From positions 1 to 43,120 of the forward strand of contig JBKOXV010000168.1 in assembly GCA_046725105.1 (NCBI GenBank): DNA of 43,120 bases, in the 5' to 3' direction. Position numbers and translations under genes: made by a program. Of this stretch, positions 9,983-31,493 are shown piece by piece. The stretch is from a bacterium. GTDB lineage: Bacteria; Actinomycetota; Acidimicrobiia; Acidimicrobiales; Ilumatobacteraceae. The notes beneath the pieces were generated by a model. It had not been told where the DNA came from, did not search any database, and was given only the letters and a program-made list of their open reading frames with translations. Every line of letters begins with the position of its first letter. Positions within the stretch are counted from its first letter, which is position 1.

Positions 9983-11518
9983 TCAGTCTCCGCTGGCTTC
10001 GCCGCCGACGGTGGGCTGGCGGTAGTCGGAGTGCGTCTCGACGTGGCTGATGAGGCGCTTCACGCTCGGTTCGACCCGCTCGAGGAGCGGCTTGGGGTAG
10101 ATGCCGAGGAAGAAGATCAGCCCCAGGAGCGGCAGCATGACCAGGCCTTCCTTGAGGCTGAGCTCGGAGAAGTGGTGGTTGGGATCGTCTGGCGCACCGT
10201 GGAAGACCCGCTGGTAGGCCCAGAGCAGATAGAGGGCGGCGAGGATGACGCCCGTGGCGGCCACGACCACCCACCACCGGGCAGTGAGGAACGAGCCGAC
10301 CAGCACCAGGAACTCGCCCACGAACCCGTTGAGGCCGGGCAGGCCGATCGACGAGAGCATCACGATGGTGAACACGGCGGCAAAGACCGGCGCGACCCGC
10401 TGCAGGCCCTTCAGCTGGCTGATCTCTCGGGTGTGGCGGCGCTCGTAGATCCAGCCGACGAGCAGGAAGAGAGCGCCGGTGGAGACTCCGTGGTTCACCA
10501 TCTGCAGCAGCCCGCCCGAGACGCTCTGGGTGGTGAGGGCGAAGGTGCCGAGCACGATGAAGCCGAGGTGGGCGACCGACGAGTAGGCCACCAGGCGTTT
10601 CAAATCGTGCTGCATCGTGGCGCAGATGGCGCCGTAGATGATGCCGATCACTCCGAGGGTGATGAACAACGGCGCCCACCAGTGGGCGGCGTCGGGGAAC
10701 AGGTACAGCCCGTAGCGGAGGAATCCGTACGTGCCGAGCTTCAGCATGACACCGGCCAGGATCACCGAGCCGGCCGTGGGTGCGTTGGTGTGCGCATCGG
10801 GCAGCCACGTGTGCAGCGGGAACAGCGGCACCTTGACCGCGAAGGCGATGGCGAAGGCGAGGAACAACCACCGCGTGGTGCTGGCCGCGATCGCCTGGTC
10901 GGAGGCGATGACGGTGACGTCGAAGGTGAGGATGCCGGTCTCGTTGCGGTACAGGAAGACCGTCGCGAGCAGGCCCACCAGCATGAAGGCCGAGCCCGTC
11001 ATCGTGAACAGGAAGAACTTCACGGCGGCGTAGACCCGCTCACCGTGACCCCAGCCGCCGATGAGGAAGTACATCGGCACCAGCACGATCTCGAAGAAGA
11101 TGAAGAAGAGGAACAGGTCGAGGGCGAGGAACGTGCCGAGGACGCCGGCCTCGAGCAGCAGCATCCAGGCCGTGTAGGCCTTGGCGTCGTGGCTGACGTC
11201 GGCGTCGCCCCCCCAGAAGGCCAGCGGGAACAACACGCCGGTGAGCACCACGAGGAACAAGGAGATCCCGTCCACCCCGAGGTACCACGAGATGTCCCAC
11301 GCCTTGATCCACGGGTGCCGCGACAGGAACTGGAAGCCGTCGGCCCCCTTGTCGAAGTCGATGAGCAGGTAGATGGTGAGCGCCGCCGTGGCGAGCGAGA
11401 AGAGGATGCCGAGCAGCTTCACCAGGCGCACCTGGCGCCTCGACGTGAGCGCAACCACCAGGGCGCCGGCTGCCGGGACGAGGATGATCGACGTCAGCAG
11501 CGGGAACGAGCTGTCCAT
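9983..11518 (-). CDS. nuoM: NADH-quinone oxidoreductase subunit M (cluster 2), 511 aa
   Basis: AVKVPLFPLHTWLPDAHTNAPTAGSVILAGVMLKLGTYG. The ATG at 11518 shares 1 nt with the nuoL stop (TGATG). Confidence 0.93.
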   Translation of the reverse strand: MDSSFPLLTSIILVPAAGALVVALTSRRQVRLVKLLGILFSLATAALTIYLLIDFDKGADGFQFLSRHPWIKAWDISWYLGVDGISLFLVVLTGVLFPLAFWGGDADVSHDAKAYTAWMLLLEAGVLGTFLALDLFLFFIFFEIVLVPMYFLIGGWGHGERVYAAVKFFLFTMTGSAFMLVGLLATVFLYRNETGILTFDVTVIASDQAIAASTTRWLFLAFAIAFAVKVPLFPLHTWLPDAHTNAPTAGSVILAGVMLKLGTYGFLRYGLYLFPDAAHWWAPLFITLGVIGIIYGAICATMQHDLKRLVAYSSVAHLGFIVLGTFALTTQSVSGGLLQMVNHGVSTGALFLLVGWIYERRHTREISQLKGLQRVAPVFAAVFTIVMLSSIGLPGLNGFVGEFLVLVGSFLTARWWVVVAATGVILAALYLLWAYQRVFHGAPDDPNHHFSELSLKEGLVMLPLLGLIFFLGIYPKPLLERVEPSVKRLISHVETHSDYRQPTVGGEASGD

Positions 11519-13506
11519 CAGATGCCCCTGCTCACGAACCAGGCGAGCAGGGCCACGGCCCCTATGCCGATGCCGAGGGCGTAGTTGCGGACGTAGCCCG
11601 ACTGCAGGTGCCGCAGGGTACGGCCGCTGAGACGCGACAGCTTGCCCACGCCGTTGACGGCGCCGTCGACGACGTTGTGGTCGAACCACGCCACGTCTTC
11701 GAACGACTCGTAGCCCGGCCCCGCCACGAAGGCCGAGACGGCGCCGTCGTAGTACCACGCGTGGGCGAGGAAGGCGGGCTCGAACGCCTTCAGCCGATGC
11801 CGGCCGTACACGAGCCAGGCGACGACGATGCCGCCGATGCCGATGACGGCGGACGCGATGGCGAACGCCCACTGCTCCGCTCCCGAGAGCGACAAGACGT
11901 GCTCGCTCTCGTGGAAGACCGGTTCGAGCCAGCGGCCGAGGAACTCCGTCTGCTCAGAGAACGGCAGGTTCAGCAGCCCGCCGAAGACGCAGCCGAACGA
12001 CAGGACGATGAGCGGCACCGTCATCAACCACACCGACTCGTGCGGTGGGTGGGCGTCGTGGTGCTCCGCCGTCGGCTCCAACGTGTTGACGGCGGCGCCG
12101 ACGGCCAGCGGGACGGGTTCGACGAGGGGCTCGGTGCCGCCCTCCGGGCCGACGACGTTGGTGAGGTCGGGCCGGGCTTCGTCCCACCGGGCCTTGCCGA
12201 AGAAGACGAGGAAGACCTCGCGGCCCATGTAGTACGCGGTGAGAAGGGCGGCGACCTCGCCCACGACCCACAATGCCGGGCTCTTGTCCCATGCGTTGAC
12301 GAGAATCTCGTCCTTGGACCAGAAGCCGGCGAACGGCGGGACGCCGGCGATGGCCAGCCAGGCGATGATGAAGGTGATCGACGTGATCGGCATCACCTTG
12401 CGGAGGGCGCCCATGTGGCGCATGTCCTGGTCCTCGTGGGGCATGCCGTGGATCACCGAGCCGGCGCCCAGGAACAGGCTGGCCTTGAAGAAGGCGTGCG
12501 TGATCATGTGGAAGACGGCCGCCACATAGGCGCCCGATCCGACCGCCAGGAACATGTACCCGAGCTGGCTGACCGTCGAGTAGGCGAGCACCTTCTTGAT
12601 GTCGTTCTGGGCCACGGCACACGTCGCGGCGAAGAACGCGGTGAACACACCGACGATGGCGATGACGGTGCCCACGTCGGGCACTTCGGCCAGCAGCGGG
12701 CTGATCCGGCACATCAGGTAGACGCCGGCCGTGACCATGGTGGCGGCATGGATCAGCGCCGACACGGGCGTGGGGCCTTCCATGGCGTCGGGCAACCAGA
12801 GGTACAGCGGAAACTGGGCCGACTTGCCGACGGCACCGAGGAACAGCAGCAGGCAGATGGCGGTGATCGTGGTCGTGGCCAGGCTGTCGGCCTGGCCGAG
12901 CAGCACGTCGTAGTTGAGCGAGCCCACCGCCTGGAACACGAGGAACATGGCGATCATGAAGCCCCAGTCACCGACCCGGTTGGTGACGAAGGCCTTCTTG
13001 CCGGCCGACGGAGGCCGCACCCGCGTGAACCAGAACGAGACCAGGAAGTAGGAGCAGAGGCCGACGCCCTCCCAGCCGAGGAACGTCACCAACAGGTTGC
13101 TGCCCAGCACGAGCATGAGCATCGAGAAGACGAACAGGTTCAGGTACAGGAAGAACTTCGAGAAGTCACGGTCGCCGTGCATGTAGCCGATGGCGTACAG
13201 GTGGATCAGCGCGCTGATGCCCGTGACGAAGAGCGCCATCGTGATCGACAGGGGGTCGACCAGGAACCCGACGTCGACGTGGAGGTTGCCGACGGGCACC
13301 CAGGCGAAGAGCGTCTTCACCAGCGAACGCTCGTCGGCCGGCTTCGAGAGCATGTCGATCCATATGCCGACGGTCACGAAGAACGCGGCCGACGTCACGA
13401 GGGTGGCGAACCACCCGGCGGCCGGCTCACCGAGGCGCCGGCCGAAGAAGAACAGCACCACGAATCCGAACGCCGGCAGGGCAGGAACGAGCCAGACGAT
13501 GTCCAT
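11518..13506 (-). CDS. nuoL: NADH-quinone oxidoreductase subunit L (cluster 2), 662 aa
   Basis: WEGVGLCSYFLVSFW and GKSAQFPLYLWLPDAMEGPTPVSALIHAATMVTAGVY. C-terminal lateral-helix region. Confidence 0.94.
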   Translation of the reverse strand: MDIVWLVPALPAFGFVVLFFFGRRLGEPAAGWFATLVTSAAFFVTVGIWIDMLSKPADERSLVKTLFAWVPVGNLHVDVGFLVDPLSITMALFVTGISALIHLYAIGYMHGDRDFSKFFLYLNLFVFSMLMLVLGSNLLVTFLGWEGVGLCSYFLVSFWFTRVRPPSAGKKAFVTNRVGDWGFMIAMFLVFQAVGSLNYDVLLGQADSLATTTITAICLLLFLGAVGKSAQFPLYLWLPDAMEGPTPVSALIHAATMVTAGVYLMCRISPLLAEVPDVGTVIAIVGVFTAFFAATCAVAQNDIKKVLAYSTVSQLGYMFLAVGSGAYVAAVFHMITHAFFKASLFLGAGSVIHGMPHEDQDMRHMGALRKVMPITSITFIIAWLAIAGVPPFAGFWSKDEILVNAWDKSPALWVVGEVAALLTAYYMGREVFLVFFGKARWDEARPDLTNVVGPEGGTEPLVEPVPLAVGAAVNTLEPTAEHHDAHPPHESVWLMTVPLIVLSFGCVFGGLLNLPFSEQTEFLGRWLEPVFHESEHVLSLSGAEQWAFAIASAVIGIGGIVVAWLVYGRHRLKAFEPAFLAHAWYYDGAVSAFVAGPGYESFEDVAWFDHNVVDGAVNGVGKLSRLSGRTLRHLQSGYVRNYALGIGIGAVALLAWFVSRGI

Positions 13507-23882: not shown

Positions 23883-24683
23883 CTAGACCTCGGCGGGGAC
23901 GGGTTCGAGCGACTCGCTGGTGGTGGTGGCCCGGTTGGCGGCCACCAATCTCTCACGCCTGTGCAGCCAGCGGCACAGGAACAGGAAGATGATGGTGGAC
24001 CCGATGCAGATGAGGGCGGCCGGCCGCCGCCGATTCCCCAGGTCGCGCTCCATCAGGACGTAGCGGGTGGGCGCGTTCGGGTCGGCCACAGGCGTCGGTG
24101 GAGCTTTGCCCGGCTCGGTGTTCTGCTTGACGACCGGCTGCACCTGCACCAGGGCGTAGTGCGGCTTGTGCAGGAAGGCGAAGAAGTCGAAATCGCCGAT
24201 CTTCGGATACCGCTCGCCACCCTTGTCGAACACGGCGACGGTGATGTAGTCGCCCGCCTTGAAGACCTGAGCCTGGTTCTGCAGGATGTCGTCGGAGGCC
24301 GCCACGGCCTGGCCCCGCTCGGGGTCGTCGGGCGCCAGCATCGTCCAGTCGTCGACCTCGCTCGTCTCGGTGGACTGGAGGAACCCGTCGCCCCCGATGA
24401 CTTCGTTGGTGGCGAGGGCGGCCGCCCCGTTCACGACGGTGACGGGCTTCCACGACGGGTCCTTGCCCTTGAGCCCGATGCCGTACACCCACCACACGGC
24501 TGACATCAGCACGATCCAACCGAAGAAGCCGGTGACGGCCACGAGGAAGCCGAGGCGCGACCCGAGGTTGGTGCCGAGGACGACATAAACGCTGCCGCAC
24601 AGCACGGCGACGCCGATGAGCACGACGATGATGCCGCGCAGGAACGGCGACCACGTAACGGCGAAGGTGAGGGCGTGACCCAT
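23883..24683 (-). CDS. Hypothetical integral membrane protein, 266 aa, between the cytochrome c gene and nuoA
   Basis: ATG at 24683 shares 1 nt with the cytochrome c stop (TGATG). N-terminal TM helices (IIVVLIGVAVLCGSVYVVLG, FLVAVTGFFGWIVLMSAVWWVYGI), a hydrophilic domain of about 150 aa and a C-terminal TM (ALICIGSTIIFLFLC). No family recognised. The track ORF to 24950 is read-through. Confidence 0.7.
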   Translation of the reverse strand: MGHALTFAVTWSPFLRGIIVVLIGVAVLCGSVYVVLGTNLGSRLGFLVAVTGFFGWIVLMSAVWWVYGIGLKGKDPSWKPVTVVNGAAALATNEVIGGDGFLQSTETSEVDDWTMLAPDDPERGQAVAASDDILQNQAQVFKAGDYITVAVFDKGGERYPKIGDFDFFAFLHKPHYALVQVQPVVKQNTEPGKAPPTPVADPNAPTRYVLMERDLGNRRRPAALICIGSTIIFLFLCRWLHRRERLVAANRATTTSESLEPVPAEV

Positions 24684-25771
24684 CAGAGACTCCGCTCGTA
24701 TTCGACGATCGCGGCGACCTGCTCGGGGGTGAGCATCTGCCCGAAGGCGGGCATCCGCCCCGTGCCCTGGCCCTGCTGCCCGTATTTCTTGCCGTCCTCC
24801 GAGCCGGTCTGGACGAAGTCGATGTGGTCGTTGGCGAGGGGGAACTGGCGGACGTCGTCGCCGTTGGTGAGGTTGGGCCCGAGGGCGCTGCCGCCGCCGG
24901 CGAGCTTCGGATCGCCGTAGGACCACCCTTGCGTGTGGCAGCGAGCGCACGAGTAGGCGCCGCTGTTGAGCGTGAGGTTGAAGAGTGCCTCACCGAGCGT
25001 CTTGTACGTGCCGTCCTGGACCGACTTCTCGGCCGCCGCCTGGATCTCGGCCTGCGTGTTCGCCGCCGGCTTGGCGGGATCGCCGGCGGGCAGGTGGCCG
25101 TCCTCGCAGGTGGTCTGCCCTTCAGGGCAGCCCTCCATCGGCACCTGGATGCTCTTGAGGTACTCGATGAGGTCGGAGATCTGCTGGTCGTTCATGGGCC
25201 CGCCGCCGGCCACGCCCCACGGCGACATGGGCGAGAAGGGCCGGCCGTAGGTGATGATGAACGTGACCTCGTCGGTGGTGAAGCGGTAGAGCACCGTGTT
25301 CAGGGCCGGGGCGTTCCAGTTGACGGCCTTCACCTCACCGGTGCGGGCGTCGGTGATCGTGTACGGCGCCACGCCGCCCTGGGCCTTCATGCCGCCGTGG
25401 CAGCCGGCGCAGTTGAAGCCACCGTCGGCCGTGGTGGCGAAGTCGAGCGAACCCCAATGGGCGAACCTCTCGTTGAACCCCTCGACGGCGCCGGCCTGGC
25501 GGGCCGGCTCGCGCAACCAGTACAGGGCCAGCCCCACGACGGTGACGACGAGCATCAGGAGGCCGATGGCCTGGACCCGTTCGAGGCGGCGGCCTTCGAG
25601 GACCTCGTCGTCGTAGTACGGCTTGCGATTCGGGGCCAGCTCGAGCTCGGACCCGAGCTCGGGCCGGACACCGCGCCAGACGTTCCACAGGAAGTAGACG
25701 AGCCATCCCGCCGTCAACACCACCAGGATGATGATGGCGATGCTCTGGGTTGACGCCTTGGCGTAGATCAT
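24683..25771 (-). CDS. Membrane-anchored dihaem c-type cytochrome (QcrC-like function), 362 aa
   Basis: Two CxxCH motifs (CAGCHG, CARCHT) with candidate Met ligands (PMSPWG, RMPAFG). Two N-terminal TM helices. The ATG overlaps the Rieske stop (ATGA). Confidence 0.88.
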   Translation of the reverse strand: MIYAKASTQSIAIIILVVLTAGWLVYFLWNVWRGVRPELGSELELAPNRKPYYDDEVLEGRRLERVQAIGLLMLVVTVVGLALYWLREPARQAGAVEGFNERFAHWGSLDFATTADGGFNCAGCHGGMKAQGGVAPYTITDARTGEVKAVNWNAPALNTVLYRFTTDEVTFIITYGRPFSPMSPWGVAGGGPMNDQQISDLIEYLKSIQVPMEGCPEGQTTCEDGHLPAGDPAKPAANTQAEIQAAAEKSVQDGTYKTLGEALFNLTLNSGAYSCARCHTQGWSYGDPKLAGGGSALGPNLTNGDDVRQFPLANDHIDFVQTGSEDGKKYGQQGQGTGRMPAFGQMLTPEQVAAIVEYERSL

Positions 25772-26637
25772 GCGTGGGATCCGCCGGCGACGTTGATGCA
25801 GTGCGGGCCCTCGGCCTCCTGGCCCGTGGTGTTGGTACCGATGGGCGGGCCGAGGGAGATGGTGCTGGTGTCGATGATGAGGTTGCCGCCGGTGATGGCC
25901 ACGGCGAAGCGGTCGAGGCCGCGGGGCGCCGGACCACCCTTCTTCTCACCGACGCGGTTGTACTGCGACCCGTGGCACGGGCACTCGAACCACTGCGAGG
26001 TCTCGCAGAAGGGCACCCGGCAGCCGAGGTGTACGCACTTCTGATAGAGGGCCACGAAGCCGGCTTCCATGCCGGTGAGTACGGCGCCCTTGTACACGGC
26101 TTCCGCCTTCGGCAGGGCGGCGGACGGGTACTGCACGAGCCAGGTGCGGGCTTCGGCGAGGTAGAGGGCGTTCTTCGACGACTCGATCTGCCCCTTCAGA
26201 TCGTCGGTCTTGCCGGCGTTGATCTTGGAGCCGAACCCGCCGCCGACCTTCGGCCACAGGAAGGCGATGCAGGCCACACCAAAGCCGCCGATGCCCACGC
26301 TCATCAGCGTGACCGTCGACCGGTTGAAGAACTGTCGGCGGGTGAAGCCGACGGTCTCGGGGTCGGGGGGCACGTACGGCGCGGGCGTGAGCGACGGGGC
26401 CGGCTCGAGCGCGCCGGTGCGATCCGAGACGGCGGCCCGCTCGATCTCCCGACCGGTGGGCACGTGCTCGTCGACCGTGGACGGCGGCGTGCTGCTGCGG
26501 TCCCTGCGCCTGGTCTCCCGTGACAGCGAGCCAGCGCCGCGCCGGACGTCACCCCGGCGGGCGGCGCTGACCAAGGCGATGGCGGCCAGCACGACCAGAG
26601 CGGCGATGACAATGGCGATGACTGCGGCGGAGCTCAT
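25768..26637 (-). CDS. Rieske [2Fe-2S] subunit of a cytochrome bc-type complex, 289 aa
   Basis: Rieske boxes CVHLGC and CPCHGSQYN. An internal twin-arginine-like TRRQFF precedes the second TM. There is an extra N-terminal TM. Confidence 0.9.
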   Translation of the reverse strand: MSSAAVIAIVIAALVVLAAIALVSAARRGDVRRGAGSLSRETRRRDRSSTPPSTVDEHVPTGREIERAAVSDRTGALEPAPSLTPAPYVPPDPETVGFTRRQFFNRSTVTLMSVGIGGFGVACIAFLWPKVGGGFGSKINAGKTDDLKGQIESSKNALYLAEARTWLVQYPSAALPKAEAVYKGAVLTGMEAGFVALYQKCVHLGCRVPFCETSQWFECPCHGSQYNRVGEKKGGPAPRGLDRFAVAITGGNLIIDTSTISLGPPIGTNTTGQEAEGPHCINVAGGSHA

Positions 26638-26646
26638 CAGTAGGTC

Positions 26647-27486
26647 CTAGAGATCGAAGAACATGCCGTCACGCCACGGGAAGGTGAAGTTGAAGCCGGG
26701 CCCGCGGAAGAACGAGCCGATGATGACGAGGACGGCCCAGAACATCAGGAAGATCGTGAAGATGGAGATGGCGAACTTGCGGTCCTCGGGCTTGATGCTG
26801 GGGTTGCGGTCGATGTACGGCGCCAGGATGAGCCCGAAGATGCCCATACCCGGGATGGTGACGCCGGCCACCATCGGGTGGAACATCGTGAGCAGCTCCT
26901 GCAACCCGAGGAAGTACCACGGCGCCTTGGACGGGTTGGGCGTGCGGTTCACGTTGGCGAGCTGCAGGAGGGGGGCGTTCACGAAGATCGAGAAAACGAG
27001 GGTGAAGGCGGTGCAGACGAGGGCGGCCACGAATTCACCCACCAGGAGGTGGGGCCAGGTGTGGACCTTGTCGACCGGGGTGGCCTTCACCTCCTGGATC
27101 GAGCCGGACTTCACCACCGTGAGCAGGCGCTGGGTGTGACCACCCGGGCCGGCGCCGACGGGGAGACCGGCCGTCGGCACGGCCGCCGCGCTGGGGCGTT
27201 CGGCCACCGCCACGCCGCCGCCTTCACCGCCACCGCCGTCGTCGCCGCCACCGCCTCCCTCGGCCCGGGCCTTGGCCGCCCGGCTGCGCTCGAGCAGGTG
27301 GGCCGGGATGCGCGACTCCGCCTCGGACGGGGGCGTCTCGGCACCGCCGGCGGCGGCGCCGGCCGGGGTCTCGGCCGTCGGAGTCTCGGCGGCATCACCG
27401 CCACCGCCGGCGGCCGCCTTGGCGGCCTCGGCCTTCTGCCGGGCCTCTTCGGCGCGCTTGCGCAGGTGCTCCGGGATCTCCGTCAT
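26647..27486 (-). CDS. Cytochrome b C-terminal domain / subunit IV (PetD/QcrC-N)-like protein with a low-complexity N-terminal extension of about 115 aa, 279 aa
   Basis: Three TMs. PNPSKAPWYFLGLQELL aligns with the PEWY Qo-loop region. Starts 1 nt after the b6 stop. The N-terminus is MTEIPEHLRKR. Confidence 0.85.
   Translation of the reverse strand: MTEIPEHLRKRAEEARQKAEAAKAAAGGGGDAAETPTAETPAGAAAGGAETPPSEAESRIPAHLLERSRAAKARAEGGGGGDDGGGGEGGGVAVAERPSAAAVPTAGLPVGAGPGGHTQRLLTVVKSGSIQEVKATPVDKVHTWPHLLVGEFVAALVCTAFTLVFSIFVNAPLLQLANVNRTPNPSKAPWYFLGLQELLTMFHPMVAGVTIPGMGIFGLILAPYIDRNPSIKPEDRKFAISIFTIFLMFWAVLVIIGSFFRGPGFNFTFPWRDGMFFDL
27462..27485. repeat. 24-nt perfect inverted repeat, copy A (5' end of the subunit-IV-like gene)
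   Basis: The minus strand reads TGACGGAGATCCCGGAGCACCTGC, identical to plus-strand 29453..29476. Covers codons 1-8 (MTEIPEHL). Confidence 0.95.
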
Positions 27487-27487
27487 C

Positions 27488-28273
27488 TCACAACGGCCCC
27501 GAGATCCCGCCGTCCTTGCGGACTCGCCAGAAGTGGATGGCCATGAAGATCACGATCACGAACGGGAGCATCAGCACGTGGAGCACGTACCACCGCAGCA
27601 GCGTCTCCGACCCGATCTCGACGCCGCCGAGCAGCACGAACCTGACCTGGCTGCCGAATACGGGGGTGTACCCCATCATGTTGGTGCCGACGGTGACGGC
27701 CCACAGGGAGAGTTGGTCCCAGGGCAGCAGGTAGCCCGTGAACGACAGCAACAGCGTCAGGGTGAGGAGGATGACGCCGATCACCCAGTTGAACTCCCGG
27801 GGCGGCTTGTACGCCCCGTGGTAGAAGACCCGCGCCATGTGGAGGAACACCGAGAGCACCATGAGGTGGGCGGCCCATCGGTGCATGTTGCGTACGAGCA
27901 GACCGAACGTCACCGACGTCTGCAGGGTGTAGATGTCGTTCCACGCCTGGGCCGTCGTGGGCCGGTAGAAGAACATCAGGAAGATGCCGGTGACCGTCAG
28001 CAGGATGAAGAGGAAAAAGCTGAGCCCGCCGAGGCAGAGCGTGTAGCTCACCTTCACCGCGTGGCGCTTCACCTTCACCGGGTGCAGGTGGTACAGCACC
28101 GAGTTCATGATCACGTAGGAACGGTTGCGGGGGCTGTCCGTGTAGCCCTTGCGGAAGATCGAGCCAGGTCGGAAGATCGAGTTCCAGGCCTGTGACCCCT
28201 GGATCTTGCCGTTGAGCTCGCTGATGCGCTCGCCGGGGGTCTTCCGGGGCTTCTCGTCGATCGTCTTGGCCAC
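27488..28273 (-). CDS. Cytochrome b6-type (split, N-terminal four-helix) cytochrome b, 261 aa
   Basis: His pairs in MHRWAAHLMVLSVFLH (13-residue spacing) and LHVLMLPFVIVIFMAIH (14-residue spacing, the b6 type). Cys in YTLCLGG sits at the position of the haem-ci Cys. GTG start with AGGAG 6 nt upstream. Confidence 0.9.
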   Translation of the reverse strand: MAKTIDEKPRKTPGERISELNGKIQGSQAWNSIFRPGSIFRKGYTDSPRNRSYVIMNSVLYHLHPVKVKRHAVKVSYTLCLGGLSFFLFILLTVTGIFLMFFYRPTTAQAWNDIYTLQTSVTFGLLVRNMHRWAAHLMVLSVFLHMARVFYHGAYKPPREFNWVIGVILLTLTLLLSFTGYLLPWDQLSLWAVTVGTNMMGYTPVFGSQVRFVLLGGVEIGSETLLRWYVLHVLMLPFVIVIFMAIHFWRVRKDGGISGPL

Positions 28274-28281
28274 GAGGTCTC

Positions 28282-28695
28282 CTAGAACCGCATCCCGTAG
28301 GCGTAGCCGTAATTGTTGGTGCGGGTGTGCGAGTCACCGCCGGCCGGCGCGGCGCCGACCTTGCCGAGGATGATGACGCCAGTGGGGCACCGGTCGACGC
28401 AGAGGGCGCAGCGGGTGCACACGTCGTCGTCGATGATGAACACCACGTGATCGCTCGGGTCGTCGCCCGGCTGGTCGGTGTTGACCGACTCGGCCACGGC
28501 GTCGGGGGTGACCATGTGGATGCACTTCCACGGGCAGATGTCGACGCAGCCCTCGCACATGATGCACTCGGACTGGTCGATGTGGATGAACTGCTTCGGC
28601 TTGACCGCTTTAGTGAGGTAATCGGCGTCGACCTCGATGAGTTGGTACTCATCGCTCCACTCGGGCATCGGAGGATTGGCATCGGTGCGAGCCAT
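28282..28695 (-). CDS. Soluble 2x[4Fe-4S] dicluster ferredoxin-domain protein, 137 aa
   Basis: CIMCEGCVDICP and CTRCALCVDRCP. No TM or signal peptide visible. Gaps of 8-9 nt to the flanking genes. Confidence 0.88.
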   Translation of the reverse strand: MARTDANPPMPEWSDEYQLIEVDADYLTKAVKPKQFIHIDQSECIMCEGCVDICPWKCIHMVTPDAVAESVNTDQPGDDPSDHVVFIIDDDVCTRCALCVDRCPTGVIILGKVGAAPAGGDSHTRTNNYGYAYGMRF

Positions 28696-28704
28696 GGCGC
28701 AGCC

Positions 28705-29184
28705 TCACCCCTTCCTTACAAGAGGCCGACCGTAGGTGGATGTGGGCAGCTCCGGAACGACCTTCGCCTTACCACGCTTCTGCCACCACGACCACATGAC
28801 GATCTGCAAGCCGAGGAAGAAGCCGTAGATGATCACGACGACGATGTCGCCGAGCGCTTGGAAGGTGATGTCGAACGGGAACCAGGAGAGCTGGAGGACC
28901 TCGGAAGCGGAGTTGTGCCCGATCCAGATGCGGTCGGCTCGCCAGTTCAGTTGGTTCTGCTCGTGGGTGAGCCACTGGTGGGGCACGACGCCGTAGGCGA
29001 GGAACAGCAGGCCGAAGGCGTAGGTGGCCGCGATCATCGCCTCGCCCCAGGTGACCGGAGTGCCCGGTCGGCGACGCTTCCCGTACGGGATGACGGCCAG
29101 CGTGAGGAGCAAGGTGCCGAAGAAGGACACGATGAACTGCACGTTCACCCCGGGCCACTTGAGCACGTCGATCGCCACGATCAC
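28705..29184 (-). CDS. Hypothetical integral membrane protein, 159 aa, first gene of the bc-type cluster
   Basis: About three hydrophobic helices (VQFIVSFFGTLLLTLAVIPY, AMIAATYAFGLLFLAYGVV, IVVVIIYGFFLGLQIVMW). GTG start with GAGGAGGAG upstream. No family recognised. Confidence 0.7.
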   Translation of the reverse strand: MIVAIDVLKWPGVNVQFIVSFFGTLLLTLAVIPYGKRRRPGTPVTWGEAMIAATYAFGLLFLAYGVVPHQWLTHEQNQLNWRADRIWIGHNSASEVLQLSWFPFDITFQALGDIVVVIIYGFFLGLQIVMWSWWQKRGKAKVVPELPTSTYGRPLVRKG

Positions 29185-29201
29185 GCCGGGCAGCTCCTCC
29201 T

Positions 29202-29217
29202 CGTGAATCCGCTCACA
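29202..29217. promoter_or_regulatory. CRP/GlxR-like palindromic box CGTGA-ATCCGC-TCACA
   Basis: Matches TGTGA-N6-TCACA at 9/10 positions. Lies 18 nt upstream of the first gene of the bc-type cluster, abutting its RBS. 15/17 identical to the box at 7510..7525. Confidence 0.45.
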
Positions 29218-29223
29218 ACACTA
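29218..29223 (-). promoter_or_regulatory. -10-like hexamer TAGTGT immediately upstream of the CRP-like box
   Basis: The minus strand reads GGC-TAGTGT-TGTGAGCGGATTCACG-AGGAGGAG, which fits TAnnnT. This would place the transcription start inside the box. The -35 element is weak (TTGAGG). Confidence 0.3.
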
Positions 29224-29437
29224 GCCACCGTCCCTCGTCCTCAAACCACCGAGGGGCTCCCGCCTGGTGTCTACCACGCCCTCCCACTCCCGCCAGAACC
29301 ACCACAACCGCCCGCACCGCCTCTCGCCTGTGGCGCCCGTTGGGGCGGAATTCGCACCATCCAGCGACACAAGCGTGGGTCCCGGCCGACTCGGGACGCG
29401 CTTGCGCCCTGATTCACGAGCGCATGGGACCACCCTC

Positions 29438-29443
29438 TACGAT
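29438..29443 (+). promoter_or_regulatory. -10-like hexamer TACGAT, 8 nt upstream of the GTG of the monohaem cytochrome c gene
   Basis: TACGAT-GCGGACCC-GTG has the same geometry as nuoA (cluster 1). No SD is visible, which suggests a leaderless mRNA. A degenerate box TGCGC-N6-TCACG (29403..29418) is centred about 41 nt upstream of the start codon. Confidence 0.35.
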
Positions 29444-29451
29444 GCGGACCC

Positions 29452-30249
29452 GTGACGGAGATCCCGGAGCACCTGCTGCGGCGGTCGCGCGAACGCCGCG
29501 CCGCGCTCGGCCTGGGTGGCGACGAGGCGCCGGCCGCCGCGCCGGGTTCGGCGGCCGAGGGTGAGGCACCGGTCCCGGCCACACCATCCCCGTCCACGCC
29601 GGCGGCTCCCCCGCCCCGCACGCCCCGACCGGCGCCGGCCGCGCCCCCGCCCCCGAAGCCAGACCCGCCCTACATCGCCGCCGCCAAGAACCGCCGGCGC
29701 ATCCCGTTCTGGGCCATGCCGGTCGTCGGCTTGCTGCCGTTGTGGGCCTACATGTACGCCCGGGGCCTCGAGCCGCCGGAGAAGACGGTCACCGGACCGG
29801 TGGCCTCTGGTCAGGCGATCTACGCCAGCAAGTGCTCGTCCTGCCACGGCAGCGGCGGCGAAGGCGGTGTCGGCTACCCGCTGGCCGGTGGCGAGGTGCT
29901 CCAGAGCTTCCCCGACATCAACCAGCACTTCGCCTTCGTCTACACCGGCAACAAGCCCTACGCCGGGCTCACTTATGGCAGCGGCCGTCACATCGGCGGC
30001 CAGCGGGGCGTGCCCGGCGCCATGCCGGCGTGGGGCTCGGCCGACGGCGGCGAGCTCACGGACGCCGAGATCGTCGAAGTCGTCTGCTACGAGCGCTACG
30101 GGCTTGGCGGCGGTGACGTCACCAGCCAGGAGTACCTCGACTGGTGCGCCGAGGACTCGGCCAACTTCGCCACCGTCGAGACCGATGGCTTCGCCGGCGC
30201 CAACATCGACGTCGGCCCCACCGCCGCCCTCACGAAGTCTGGGGGGTGA
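29452..30249 (+). CDS. Membrane-anchored monohaem c-type cytochrome, 265 aa
   Basis: CSSCHG haem motif and AMPAWG (candidate Met ligand). Single TM (IPFWAMPVVGLLPLWAYMYA) after a Pro/Ala-rich linker. N-terminus MTEIPEHLLRRS. GTG start. Confidence 0.85.
   Translation: MTEIPEHLLRRSRERRAALGLGGDEAPAAAPGSAAEGEAPVPATPSPSTPAAPPPRTPRPAPAAPPPPKPDPPYIAAAKNRRRIPFWAMPVVGLLPLWAYMYARGLEPPEKTVTGPVASGQAIYASKCSSCHGSGGEGGVGYPLAGGEVLQSFPDINQHFAFVYTGNKPYAGLTYGSGRHIGGQRGVPGAMPAWGSADGGELTDAEIVEVVCYERYGLGGGDVTSQEYLDWCAEDSANFATVETDGFAGANIDVGPTAALTKSGG
29453..29476. repeat. 24-nt perfect inverted repeat, copy B (5' end of the monohaem cytochrome c gene)
   Basis: The plus strand reads TGACGGAGATCCCGGAGCACCTGC. The only difference within the start-codon region is GTG versus ATG. 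Confidence 0.95.
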
Positions 30250-31493
30250 CCCCCGCCTTCGACGTCCTCGTCGTGGGCGGCGGACCAGCGGGCGCGGCGA
30301 CGGGCTACTGGCTGGCCGCCGCCGGCCACGAGGTGTGCGTCGTCGAGCGCAAGACGTTCCCCCGGGAGAAGACCTGTGGTGACGGCCTGACGCCGCGAGC
30401 GGTCCGGCAGCTGAACGACATGGGCCTCGCCGACGACCTCACGGCCTTCCACCGCTTCGAGGGGCTCCGGGCCACCGCCCACGGTGTCCGGCTGGACCTG
30501 CGCTGGCCGTCGCACCCCGACTTCCCGCCGTACGGCTACGTCGTACGCCGCCGCGATCTCGACCAGCTGGTCGCCGACAACGCCGTCAAGGCCGGCGCCA
30601 CGCTCTGGCAGGGCGCCGACGCCGTCGCGCCGCTCGTCGAGCGGGGCTTTGTCAGCGGCGCCACGGTCCGGCGCCAGGCCGGATCGGCCCCCGGTCCGGT
30701 GCGGGCTCGGTACGTGGTCGTGGCCGACGGGGCCAATAGCCGCTTCGGGCGGGCCCTGGGCACGTTCCGGACCCGGGAGTGGCCCTACGGGACGGCCATC
30801 CGGGGCTACTGGGCGAGTCCCCGGCACGACGACCCGTGGATCGAGTCGGCGCTCGACGTGAAGGACCGCAGCGGCAACCCGTTGCCCGGATACGGATGGA
30901 TCTTCCCCGTGGGCGACGGCACGGTGAACATCGGCGTCGGCCTGCTGTCGACGTTCCGCGACTTCAAGAGCGTCAACACCACCCATCTCCTGCAGGAGTA
31001 CGTGGCGACGGCGCCCGAGTACTGGGGCTTGTCGCCCGAACCGGCGTGCGGCAAGCCCACCAGCGGCCGGTTGCCGATGGGTGGCTCCGTAGGACCGAAG
31101 GCCGGGCCGACGTGGCTCGTGGTCGGCGATGCCGCCGGCACCGTCAACCCGTTCAACGGTGAAGGCATCGACTACGCCTACGAGACCGGCCGGCTCGCCG
31201 CCGAGGTCATCCACGAGGCGATCGACGGTAGCGACCCGCTCGTGCTGCAGACCTACGAGCGTCGGCTGCAGGCCGAGTACGCCTTGTACTTCAAGGTGGC
31301 GCGGTTGTTCGCCCGGGTGATCGGCCGGCCCGCGCTCATGCGGGAGCTCACCCGGGTGGGCATGCGGAGCCGCACCCTCATGGAGTGGGTGCTGCGCATC
31401 ATGGCCAACATCCTGCGCCCCGACGAGCTCGGCCCGGCCGAGGCCGCCTACAAGGCCGCCGCCGCCGTCGTGCGCCTCCTCCCCGACGACTGA
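30246..31493 (+). CDS. Geranylgeranyl reductase family FAD-dependent oxidoreductase (MenJ-like menaquinone reductase candidate), 415 aa
   Basis: DVLVVGGGPAGAATG (FAD fold), FPREKTCGDGLTPRAV and GDAAGTVNPFNGEGIDYA. The GTG at 30246 overlaps the cytochrome c stop (GTGA). The track ORF from 30144 is read-through. Confidence 0.85.
   Translation: MTPAFDVLVVGGGPAGAATGYWLAAAGHEVCVVERKTFPREKTCGDGLTPRAVRQLNDMGLADDLTAFHRFEGLRATAHGVRLDLRWPSHPDFPPYGYVVRRRDLDQLVADNAVKAGATLWQGADAVAPLVERGFVSGATVRRQAGSAPGPVRARYVVVADGANSRFGRALGTFRTREWPYGTAIRGYWASPRHDDPWIESALDVKDRSGNPLPGYGWIFPVGDGTVNIGVGLLSTFRDFKSVNTTHLLQEYVATAPEYWGLSPEPACGKPTSGRLPMGGSVGPKAGPTWLVVGDAAGTVNPFNGEGIDYAYETGRLAAEVIHEAIDGSDPLVLQTYERRLQAEYALYFKVARLFARVIGRPALMRELTRVGMRSRTLMEWVLRIMANILRPDELGPAEAAYKAAAAVVRLLPDD

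Follow-up and report, generated by a model that had tools for sequence, protein, structure and literature searches.

Membrane-anchored cytochromes c that serve bc complexes are known from several bacteria, including cytochrome c_y of Rhodobacter capsulatus and c550 and c551 of Bacillus. In the related field of the b6f complex, the n-side surface of subunit IV is a docking place for the Stt7/STN7 kinase and for PetP. Short peptides can also carry a docking function, such as the C-terminal conserved peptide of FtsZ, D-[IV]-P-x-F-[LM]-[RK], which sits on a disordered linker and is the docking site for several partners, while the encapsulation or targeting peptides of bacterial microcompartments are terminal helices of about 18 residues found on unrelated cargo. 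According to Zhang et al. (2001), as cited in PMC5600118, FNR purifies together with b6f.

The window analysed here, meaning the whole stretch of 43,120 nt from a member of the Ilumatobacteraceae, encodes a b6-type menaquinol:cytochrome c reductase in which a short peptide module occurs twice on subunit IV and once on a divergently encoded cytochrome c.

Genes and Module Structure

The subunit-IV-like gene (26647..27486, minus strand, 279 aa, ATG start) encodes the C-terminal half of a split cytochrome b and is PetD-like, with PF00032 at residues 177–258 (E = 7e-8), TM helices at residues 145–176, 189–225 and 233–260 in the AF2 model, and a cytochrome b6-type gene (27488..28273, minus strand; PF00033, E = 1e-46; NCBIfam ExtP, 309 bits) ending 1 nt upstream. 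This gap, which had been remarked upon in the original prediction, is real, the b6 stop lying at 27488–27490 and the subunit IV ATG at 27484–27486. The cytochrome c gene (29452..30249, plus strand, 265 aa, GTG start) encodes a membrane-anchored monohaem class I cytochrome c, as judged from PF13442/PF00034, a CSSCH motif at residues 128–132, a TM helix at residues 86–105 and a haem domain confidently modelled by AF2; a fold search returned, at weak E-values, nothing but class I cytochrome c domains. The complex is of the b6 type and has the haem c_n motif Cys; its operon also includes a ferredoxin gene.

The module spans roughly 16–20 residues with the consensus [ST]-[ER]-I-P-x-H-L-[LR]-x-R-[SA]-x-x-[AR]-[RK]. 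Copy 1 comprises residues 1–26 of subunit IV (MTEIPEHLRKRAEEARQKAEAAKAAA; 27409..27486, minus strand), copy 2 residues 57–77 of the same protein (ESRIPAHLLERSRAAKARAEG; 27256..27318, minus strand) and copy 3 residues 1–21 of the cytochrome c ((fM)TEIPEHLLRRSRERRAALGL; 29452..29514, plus strand). AF2 predicts a helix in each, at residues 6–26 (pLDDT 67–79), 62–76 (pLDDT about 66) and 6–18 (pLDDT 77–84), respectively, starting just past the Pro and flanked by segments that are disordered (pLDDT <50). Copies 1 and 2 are separated by such a disordered linker, rich in Ala, Gly, Pro and Thr (subunit IV residues 27–56; 27319..27408, minus strand; conservation 0.2–0.35), and copy 3 is followed by an Ala/Pro-rich cytoplasmic linker (residues 22–85; 29515..29706, plus strand), disordered by conservation and AF2, which leads to the TM helix. 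On a helical wheel built from 127 diverse copies, the high-information positions fall within about ±100 degrees while the opposite face is variable, the one-face residues being I4, L8, R11, S/A12 and A/R15, flanked by H7 and R/K16. Of the features expected of a short helical docking motif on a disordered tether, three are seen here, namely a conserved island in non-conserved disordered sequence, a predicted helix and a single conserved face. In some lineages the His of copy 2 is exchanged for A, S, E or D, and the three copies are perhaps not strictly equivalent.

Conservation and Spread of the Module

Comparison across relatives indicates that the peptide is real and strongly selected. P5, L8 and R11 are invariant in the 127 copies. 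Of 120 listed homologues of the cytochrome c, 112 retain their N-terminus, and in these its sequence, (M/V/L)TEIPEHLL[KR]RS, hardly varies, even where overall identity falls to 45–50%. Its residues 1–12 are conserved above the protein's own haem domain, with the linkers scoring 0.2–0.4. Both copies of subunit IV are nearly invariant in 120 homologues, copy 1 also across the loci of 80 Acidimicrobiia species, where subunit IV carries two copies in 70 and one in 8. A tagged cytochrome c is found in 62 of these loci, divergent at a distance of 1.85–2.6 kb in 58/62. The module persists across a GC range of 37% to >70%, its codons being adapted to the genome.

Subtypes of the module have evidently been exchanged among the three positions between lineages, as read from their sequences. 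In one related locus (L040) both proteins start AGIPEHLLKRAQEAR, the peptides being 18/20 identical while their DNA differs at 13/45 bases (about 11/15 codons). In another (L049) subunit IV bears the cytochrome-c-type tail RSAERRAALG, and the RSQAAKAKA tail, typical of copy 2, is found on several cytochromes c.

Nor is the module confined to respiratory proteins, a point that the original prediction had proposed to check. A profile search of 1.84e9 representative proteins gave 620 matches at E <= 1e-3, and unrelated proteins, about ten at the least, were seen to bear 2–7 copies of the module in tandem, fused to soluble or membrane domains and having nothing but the module in common. By these sequence matches the module is portable. 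Two module-bearing genes lie on one contig of the Saccharimonadales, which belong to the TM7 group and in culture live as epibionts on Actinomycetota. The occurrence on this contig, together with the spread to unrelated proteins, suggests a general address system. The module gave no match in Pfam, the PDB or Rfam and no detectable relative in NCBIfam, and a search of the literature found no paper mentioning it. With no relative detected in Pfam, the PDB and NCBIfam, it has no functional precedent by homology.

The Inverted Repeat and the Level of Selection

The DNA encoding the two N-termini forms a perfect inverted repeat of 24 nt (100% complementary), with arms at 27462..27485 (minus strand) and 29453..29476 (plus strand), which confirms the identity originally predicted at the two gene starts. 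The arms are bases 2–25 of the respective ORFs, with divergence from base 26, and the two genes share codons 2–8 (T E I P E H L) base for base. No other perfect inverted repeat of >=20 nt occurs in 24000–31000. A six-frame scan of the whole window locates IPxHL at three sites only, i.e., the two gene starts and the third copy within subunit IV, which was also correctly predicted (RIPAHLLERS, residues 59–68, with IPAHL at 27295–27309) and whose DNA matches the repeat at 15/18 bases. By our own arithmetic a random 24-mer match in 43 kb has a chance of ~1e-5; given an identical heptapeptide and the codon usage of this genome, all seven codons coincide with P = 0.046. The repeat is real and is explained by the shared peptide and strong codon bias, since an identical heptapeptide is encoded here in a genome with a GC3 of 0.92. 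It is a by-product and no feature in its own right, its sole significance being as an example of how codon bias turns shared peptides into perfect DNA repeats.

Codons 2–8 were compared in the window and in 62 related Acidimicrobiia, making 63 genomes in which the starts of both genes are present. Within genomes, 415/441 codon pairs specify the same residue, yet only 57% use the same codon, which points to purifying selection on the peptide and not on the DNA. Gene conversion between the inverted 5′ ends, keeping both identical, had been offered as a cause, and besides the perfect identity in the window it can draw on a within-genome codon identity slightly above the 50% found between genomes (permutation P = 1e-4), on codons 2 and 8 of the window's subunit IV gene, which are shifted toward the cytochrome c sequence relative to the closest relatives (L209 and L212), and on co-varying N-terminal residues in three loci (L040, L064 and L072), which show that the module has been replaced in the past. 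However, the excess mostly disappears against genomes of similar GC3 (54%), and all seven codons are identical in only 2/63 genomes, the window and one relative, compared with 1.3% of between-genome pairs. The recurrent excess of within-genome synonymous identity that concerted evolution would leave across lineages is not seen here. The two starts differ at 5 and 4 synonymous sites in L209 and L212, L040 maintains the peptide without DNA identity, and a 24-nt span offers almost no homology for starting recombination. As a standing or recurrent process conversion is thus unsupported and, in our estimation, very improbable; one private micro-conversion in the window lineage is possible but not needed, because chance suffices at the above P value. 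The other proposed cause, selection on nucleotides for a common mRNA 5′ sequence required by unusual translation initiation, finds some encouragement in the atypical nature of both starts. That of subunit IV is internal and coupled, its ATG lying 1 nt past the b6 stop, and the cytochrome c start is conserved as non-ATG (GTG 36, TTG 23 and ATG 4 in the 63 genomes). In the window this GTG has no SD upstream and follows, at 8 nt, a -10-like hexamer, TACGAT (29438..29443, plus strand), a candidate leaderless promoter which was not called in a strict sigma-70 scan, although 18 related loci likewise have TAnnnT at 6–8 nt from their start codon. A leaderless GTG, as originally predicted, is plausible on this pattern. 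Nevertheless, the start contexts of the two genes differ, and that of the cytochrome c, as a first gene, alternates between leaderless-type and SD-type (GGAGG with TTG or GTG in other relatives) while the peptide stays unchanged; in either gene the synonymous positions of codons 2–8 differ without constraint from relative to relative, the peptide of internal copy 2 is preserved although its DNA is different, and no Rfam match occurs anywhere in the window. Selection on the mRNA is thereby largely refuted and has become extremely improbable. That DNA identity is lost in relatives while the peptides are kept, an outcome which the original prediction had itself named as refuting, speaks against both causes.

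A Proposed Docking Helix

The module is best read as a portable cytoplasmic docking helix, with a putative partner common to the subunit IV and cytochrome c copies, a proposal drawn from structure models and conservation in which our confidence is evenly balanced. Each copy would form a short helix right after the Pro, with a disordered Gly/Ala/Pro tether holding it in the cytoplasm, and its conserved face would bind one cytoplasmic partner for all copies, unless the copies bind each other. Subunit IV, with two copies per monomer, and the cytochrome c, with one, would in this manner be held at a common site, with the outcome that the electron acceptor stays beside the complex or that both proteins make the same contact for assembly or regulation; avidity would be gained where copies stand in tandem. 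The docking or assembly tag that had been suggested originally gains from the conservation, the helix prediction and the interchangeable copies, whereas docking itself and co-localisation are what we infer. If it is a docking tag, it marks a cytoplasmic partner of the b6-type complex in a large, mostly uncultured actinobacterial class, and a 20-residue peptide with three invariant residues would be a simple handle for finding that partner.

Two further readings of the module deny it a protein partner or any specific role. Binding of a basic helix to anionic membrane lipid or nucleic acid, with the tails pinned at the membrane surface or on the nucleoid or RNA, is unlikely, though it accommodates the net charge of about +1 to +3, the invariant Arg, the conserved R/K16 and the tandem copies on flexible spacers, which suit a polymeric or surface target. 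It could also invoke protein P0352, in which the module is extended to about 35 residues in a layout recalling helix A-turn-helix B of ribbon-helix-helix DNA binders; the window copies, however, are without a second helix, and the module HMM scores <=0 bits on Arc, CopG and ParD (approximate sequences). A classical membrane-targeting helix would need a larger hydrophobic face, and such extreme conservation of specific side chains (I, P, H, L, R, S/A) is more in keeping with a shaped protein pocket than with electrostatic binding. The second reading, named in the original prediction among the outcomes that would refute it, takes the motif for a generic feature, of low complexity or of composition, in the tails of high-GC actinobacterial proteins, lacking specific function; the module does sit in Ala/Gly/Pro/Arg-rich tails and is present on unrelated proteins. 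Yet it is a specific motif of about 47 bits (46.8 bits for the window's cytochrome c copy against the module HMM), and in 1.35 Mb of related loci all matches >15 bits lie in subunit IV or cytochrome c, the next best scoring <9 bits. With three invariant positions, retention across the GC range and unconserved adjacent linkers, this alternative is already refuted by the conservation data and keeps a negligible likelihood.

The module has a thin hydrophobic stripe (I, L, A, A) on a basic helix, to which anionic lipid or nucleic acid binding fits equally.

Several motif classes were considered and rejected. A ribbon-helix-helix domain does not agree with window copies that are a single helix followed by low-complexity sequence, nor with the HMM scores given above; P0352, the only copy with a second-helix extension, reaches E = 0.03 and 15.4 bits with Pfam CopG_antitoxin, below the curated cut-off of 28 bits. 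A Tat signal has the form [ST]-R-R-x-F-L-K, with a hydrophobic h-region directly after it and a cleavage site. Here RR is found only in the cytochrome c copy (RERRAALG), where about 65 residues, hydrophilic and disordered, separate it from the TM helix, and the subunit IV copies have no RR pair at that position. A motif like the FtsZ C-terminal peptide was set aside with module copies that are N-terminal or internal and have His for Phe (A/S/E/D being possible in copy 2), and with a module HMM score of <=0 bits on FtsZ tails (approximate sequences).

A bolder version, which we consider quite improbable, would have one cytoplasmic hub of the Acidimicrobiia recognise the module as an address tag, tethering the cytochrome c to the b6c complex from the cytoplasmic side, with the tag copied to unrelated proteins including those of Saccharimonadales, perhaps as mimics of host tags. 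If true, a respiratory supercomplex would be built in a manner not described before. Should the module serve a general hub, as the unrelated carriers suggest, a role in keeping cytochrome c at the complex is not required.

Comparison With Known Systems

The microcompartment peptides resemble the module in their poorly conserved linkers, unrelated carriers and sometimes tandem arrangement; unlike that cargo, most carriers of the module are integral membrane proteins, and its sequence pattern differs. No shell gene was noticed among those examined in the window and those called in the related loci. The FtsZ peptide is likewise short and conserved, with an I/V-P-x-aromatic/His-L-R/K core and a long disordered linker, but it is C-terminal and single, whereas the module is N-terminal or internal, often tandem and carried by integral membrane proteins. 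The likeness is one of analogy and not of homology.

In b6f, the n-side (stromal or cytoplasmic) face of subunit IV binds soluble partners, as is proposed for the present complex. The b6f contacts are made by folded n-side surface or loops, whereas a repeated peptide on a 110-residue tail would serve here, and there is no sequence similarity. Cytochromes c_y, c550 and c551 share with the cytochrome c of this locus an N-terminal TM anchor, a monohaem class I domain outside the membrane and a gene adjoining a Rieske/cytochrome b operon. They differ from it in that here a long Ala/Pro linker and a conserved helix lie on the cytoplasmic side, ahead of the anchor, with the haem domain about 25 residues past the TM helix. 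To our knowledge none of the three has a cytoplasmic tag in common with subunit IV, and such a tag, shared by a complex III subunit and its electron acceptor, would, if the proposal is true, be a new means of holding them together.

Conservation and predicted structure of the module

The module, a short cytoplasmic peptide carried twice by the subunit-IV-like protein (hereafter subunit IV; copies 1 and 2; 26647-27486, minus strand) and once at the N-terminus of the divergently encoded monohaem cytochrome c (copy 3; 29452-30249, plus strand), is a real, strongly selected and undescribed element. Among 120 listed cytochrome c homologues, (M/V/L)TEIPEHLL[KR]RS[RK] is kept at the N-terminus in 112, these being the ones that retain it, and the motif persists even at 45-50% overall identity. 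Subunit IV homologues keep MTEIPEHL[RL]KRA... and [SP][RK]IPAHLLERS[RK]AAK; across 80 related loci, subunit IV has two copies in 70, one in 8 and none detected in 2. The gene arrangement is conserved too, since 58 of the 62 tagged cytochromes c found in these 80 loci lie divergently at a distance of 1.85-2.6 kb.

Residues 1-12 of cytochrome c are conserved above the haem domain in an alignment of 63 sequences, with the linkers scoring 0.2-0.4. Over 127 non-redundant module copies, P5, L8 and R11 are invariant, and I4, H7, L9, S/A12, A/R15 and R/K16 carry 3.2-3.9 bits. On a helical wheel, the conserved positions lie no more than about 100 degrees to either side of L8, and the opposite face is variable. 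AlphaFold2, run with family alignments, predicts helices at residues 6-26 and 62-76 of subunit IV (pLDDT 66-79) and at 6-18 of cytochrome c (pLDDT 77-84), with disordered linkers (pLDDT <50) that lead on to the transmembrane and haem regions. The N-terminus of subunit IV is on the n-side, as established for b6f; this topology, together with the RRR-TM-haem order in cytochrome c, places all three copies on the cytoplasmic face.

The subunit IV tail (27043-27240, residues about 83-148) holds further conserved blocks, GGGVAVAERP and GPGGHTQRLLTVVKSGSIQ[ED]VKATPVDKVHTWPHLL. The second is almost invariant in 63-67 sequences, and AlphaFold2 confidence for it is low except in helix 117-125.

The 24-nt inverted repeat

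The original prediction described a perfect 24-nt inverted repeat at two gene starts, and an inverted-repeat scan bears this out in every detail. The arms, 27462-27485 and 29453-29476, are bases 2-25 of both ORFs, the products of which both start (f)MTEIPEHL. The third peptide copy that had been proposed, RIPAHLLERS at residues 59-68 of subunit IV, is likewise confirmed (15 of 18 DNA bases match), and IPxHL occurs in no frame of the window beyond the three copies.

To explain the identical codons, gene conversion had been offered, as had selection acting on the 5' end of the mRNA. The sample for DNA identity comprised 80 Acidimicrobiia loci at species level, each taken with flanks of 10 kb, and both gene starts are present in 63 genomes (the window and 62 relatives). 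The two starts encode the same residue in 415 of 441 codon pairs, and same-residue pairs use the same codon in 57% of cases within genomes, 50% between genomes and 54% between genomes of similar GC3. Full identity of the seven codons is limited to the window and one relative, L012. The starts differ at 5 synonymous sites in L209 and at 4 in L212, the closest relatives found (subunit IV 91% and 88% identical, respectively). Given the codon usage in 13 genes of the window, seven independent codon draws would coincide by chance with a probability of 0.046; with a shared peptide and a GC3 of 0.92, the repeat is thus expected in a few per cent of genomes. These comparisons lend no support to standing gene conversion, nor to selection acting on the mRNA. 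A single, private micro-conversion may have occurred in the window lineage, but the repeat can be accounted for without it. Furthermore, the arms do not pair as RNA, because both are the sense sequence on different transcripts, and an Rfam scan of the whole window gave no match. The DNA repeat is therefore ordinary.

Interchange of copies and carriers beyond the respiratory proteins

Both proteins of locus L040 start AGIPEHLLKRAQEAR, with DNA differing at 13 of 45 bases, while in L049 the tail of subunit IV, RSAERRAALG, is of the cytochrome c type. The RSQAAKAKA tail, usual for copy 2, is found on several cytochromes c, and VEVPEHL is present in both proteins of L064 and of L072. Module subtypes therefore move among the three positions by repeated replacement, followed by retention through selection on the peptide, an argument for a common function of the copies. 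On inspection, the copy-1 subtype of subunit IV (HLRKRAEEAR vs HLLKRAQAAR) shows no correlation with the tail subtype of cytochrome c.

In 1.35 Mb of sequence surrounding the operon, drawn from 81 genomes, all matches of a module HMM above 15 bits lie in subunit IV or cytochrome c, the next best being below 9 bits. Searching 1.84 billion representative proteins with a profile yielded 620 matches at E <= 1e-3; the best 150 of these are mostly fragments of the subunit IV and cytochrome c families, together with at least about ten other architectures harboring 2-7 tandem copies. These proteins have only the module in common, except P0242 and P0362, which combine three copies with a common 230-aa soluble domain. 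P0254 has an N-terminal domain without assigned function followed by four C-terminal copies, P0268 joins copies to an unrelated domain, and P0317 combines two copies with TM helices and a large outer domain. Copies also accompany TM helices in P0243, P0333, P0338 and P0354, and in P0352 (618 aa; contig L081, 668-2524) seven tandem copies precede 4-5 TM helices. Tandem copies on such unrelated proteins speak against confinement of the module to respiratory proteins. Several further matches, P0302 and P0241 among them, probably derive from subunit IV or cytochrome c by frameshift or chimerism; like the doubtful P0278 (TIR domain), they were left out of the count.

In P0352, six modules reach a length of about 35 residues (IPEHLLRRSAEARAKASGRTVEEVLAEY) and resemble a helix-turn-helix mini-domain, matching Pfam CopG_antitoxin at only E = 0.03. 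The P0254 gene lies directly after genes for a Fur-family regulator and a Zip transporter on two independent contigs (L086, 6306-7958; L087, 2519-4171).

Contig L082 (95.6 kb, 43% GC) holds two carrier genes 1.2 kb apart (10001-10552 and 11173-12150) with AT-rich codons and similar upstream sequences, both starting MTEIPEHLLNRAR. Its IF-2 is 80% identical to P0401, which is named Candidatus Saccharimonadales, and up to 82% identical to other homologues. The modules of L082 could reflect horizontal acquisition or host mimicry, a chimeric assembly of the contig being less probable. The unrelated carriers and L082 together indicate that the module is limited neither to respiratory proteins nor strictly to Acidimicrobiia. 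Subunit IV and cytochrome c are by far its main bearers; in a metagenome scan for versions with AT-rich codons, 106 of 120 matches were subunit IV of low-GC Acidimicrobiia, with few other carriers. A tblastn search of 50,697 phage and 72,556 plasmid records with a two-module peptide gave no match, to which the low-complexity filter may contribute, and none of 12 pattern matches in IMG/VR was confirmed (exact TEIPEHLLK pattern, 0).

The respiratory gene cluster

This part of the window makes up the core of a respiratory gene cluster; the genome is GC-rich (69% GC), and its nearest relatives are Acidimicrobiales metagenome bins. The minus-strand operon begins with a 159-aa membrane protein with no family match (28705-29184), followed by a cytoplasmic-looking 2x[4Fe-4S] ferredoxin (28282-28695) directly before a b6-type cytochrome b (27488-28273; NCBIfam ExtP, 309 bits against a cut-off of 290). 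Subunit IV, a Rieske protein (25768-26637), a dihaem cytochrome c (24683-25771) and nuoA-D come after in the series. The b6 protein retains the Cys of the haem c_n motif (YTLCLGG), and the gene order in 27488-29184 is the same in L209 and L212. The complex is b6c-type, possibly with a ferredoxin subunit. The divergent monohaem cytochrome c consists of an unremarkable class I domain attached to a membrane anchor.

A membrane protein of ~267 aa with no family match (23883-24680) separates the dihaem cytochrome c from nuoA and is kept at this position in L209 and L210 (267 aa called); L212 has a 168-aa protein there. At 30246-30249 (GTGA) the stop codon of the monohaem cytochrome c shares bases with the GTG start of the next gene, for a MenJ-like geranylgeranyl (menaquinone) reductase. 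This 4-nt overlap, also called in L209 and L212, suggests that translation of the cytochrome is coupled to that of a quinone-modifying enzyme.

Across the 63 genomes, the cytochrome c start (29452-29454 in the window) is GTG in 36, TTG in 23 and ATG in 4, so that a non-ATG start is kept, and the subunit IV start is ATG in 56. Two upstream layouts occur for cytochrome c. The window and 18 loci have a -10-like TAnnnT (consensus CTATCGT) that ends 6-8 nt ahead of the start codon; the alternative is a GGAGG Shine-Dalgarno. In the window, TGATTC (29410-29415) stands 22 nt upstream of the -10-like TACGAT, with GATTC/GATTTCC at about equal distance in relatives of the leaderless-type layout; as this spacing is too large for a normal -35, TGATTC may be a regulator site. 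A strict promoter and terminator scan of the divergent intergenic region returned none.

Possible function of the module

The module is a helix with one conserved face, borne on a long, disordered tether; it is repeated, portable and cytoplasmic, features that make up the anatomy of a docking peptide. The favoured explanation is that the helix binds a common cytoplasmic partner, or that the copies bind one another; subunit IV and the anchored cytochrome c would thereby be gathered at one site. Docking in general we judge an even proposition, co-localisation of these two proteins through the module being less probable. By position only, the operon ferredoxin is a candidate partner. The main rival, that the basic helix binds lipid or nucleic acid, is considered improbable.

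Comparison with known systems

Pfam and NCBIfam scans of both window proteins and ten other carriers assign no family over the module, a profile search of all PDB sequences gave nothing relevant (best match E = 5), and a full-text literature search for IPEHLL, IPAHLL and TEIPEHL returned no paper with the module sequence in the literature covered. A Tat signal was rejected on reading of the sequence, and homology to the FtsZ tail or to ribbon-helix-helix proteins was rejected in favour of analogy. The n-side of b6f subunit IV serves peripheral partners, for example FNR (as cited in PMC5600118). Docking at this surface, the FtsZ C-terminal peptide on its linker and the encapsulation peptides of microcompartments are the closest analogies to the module, as analogues rather than homologues.
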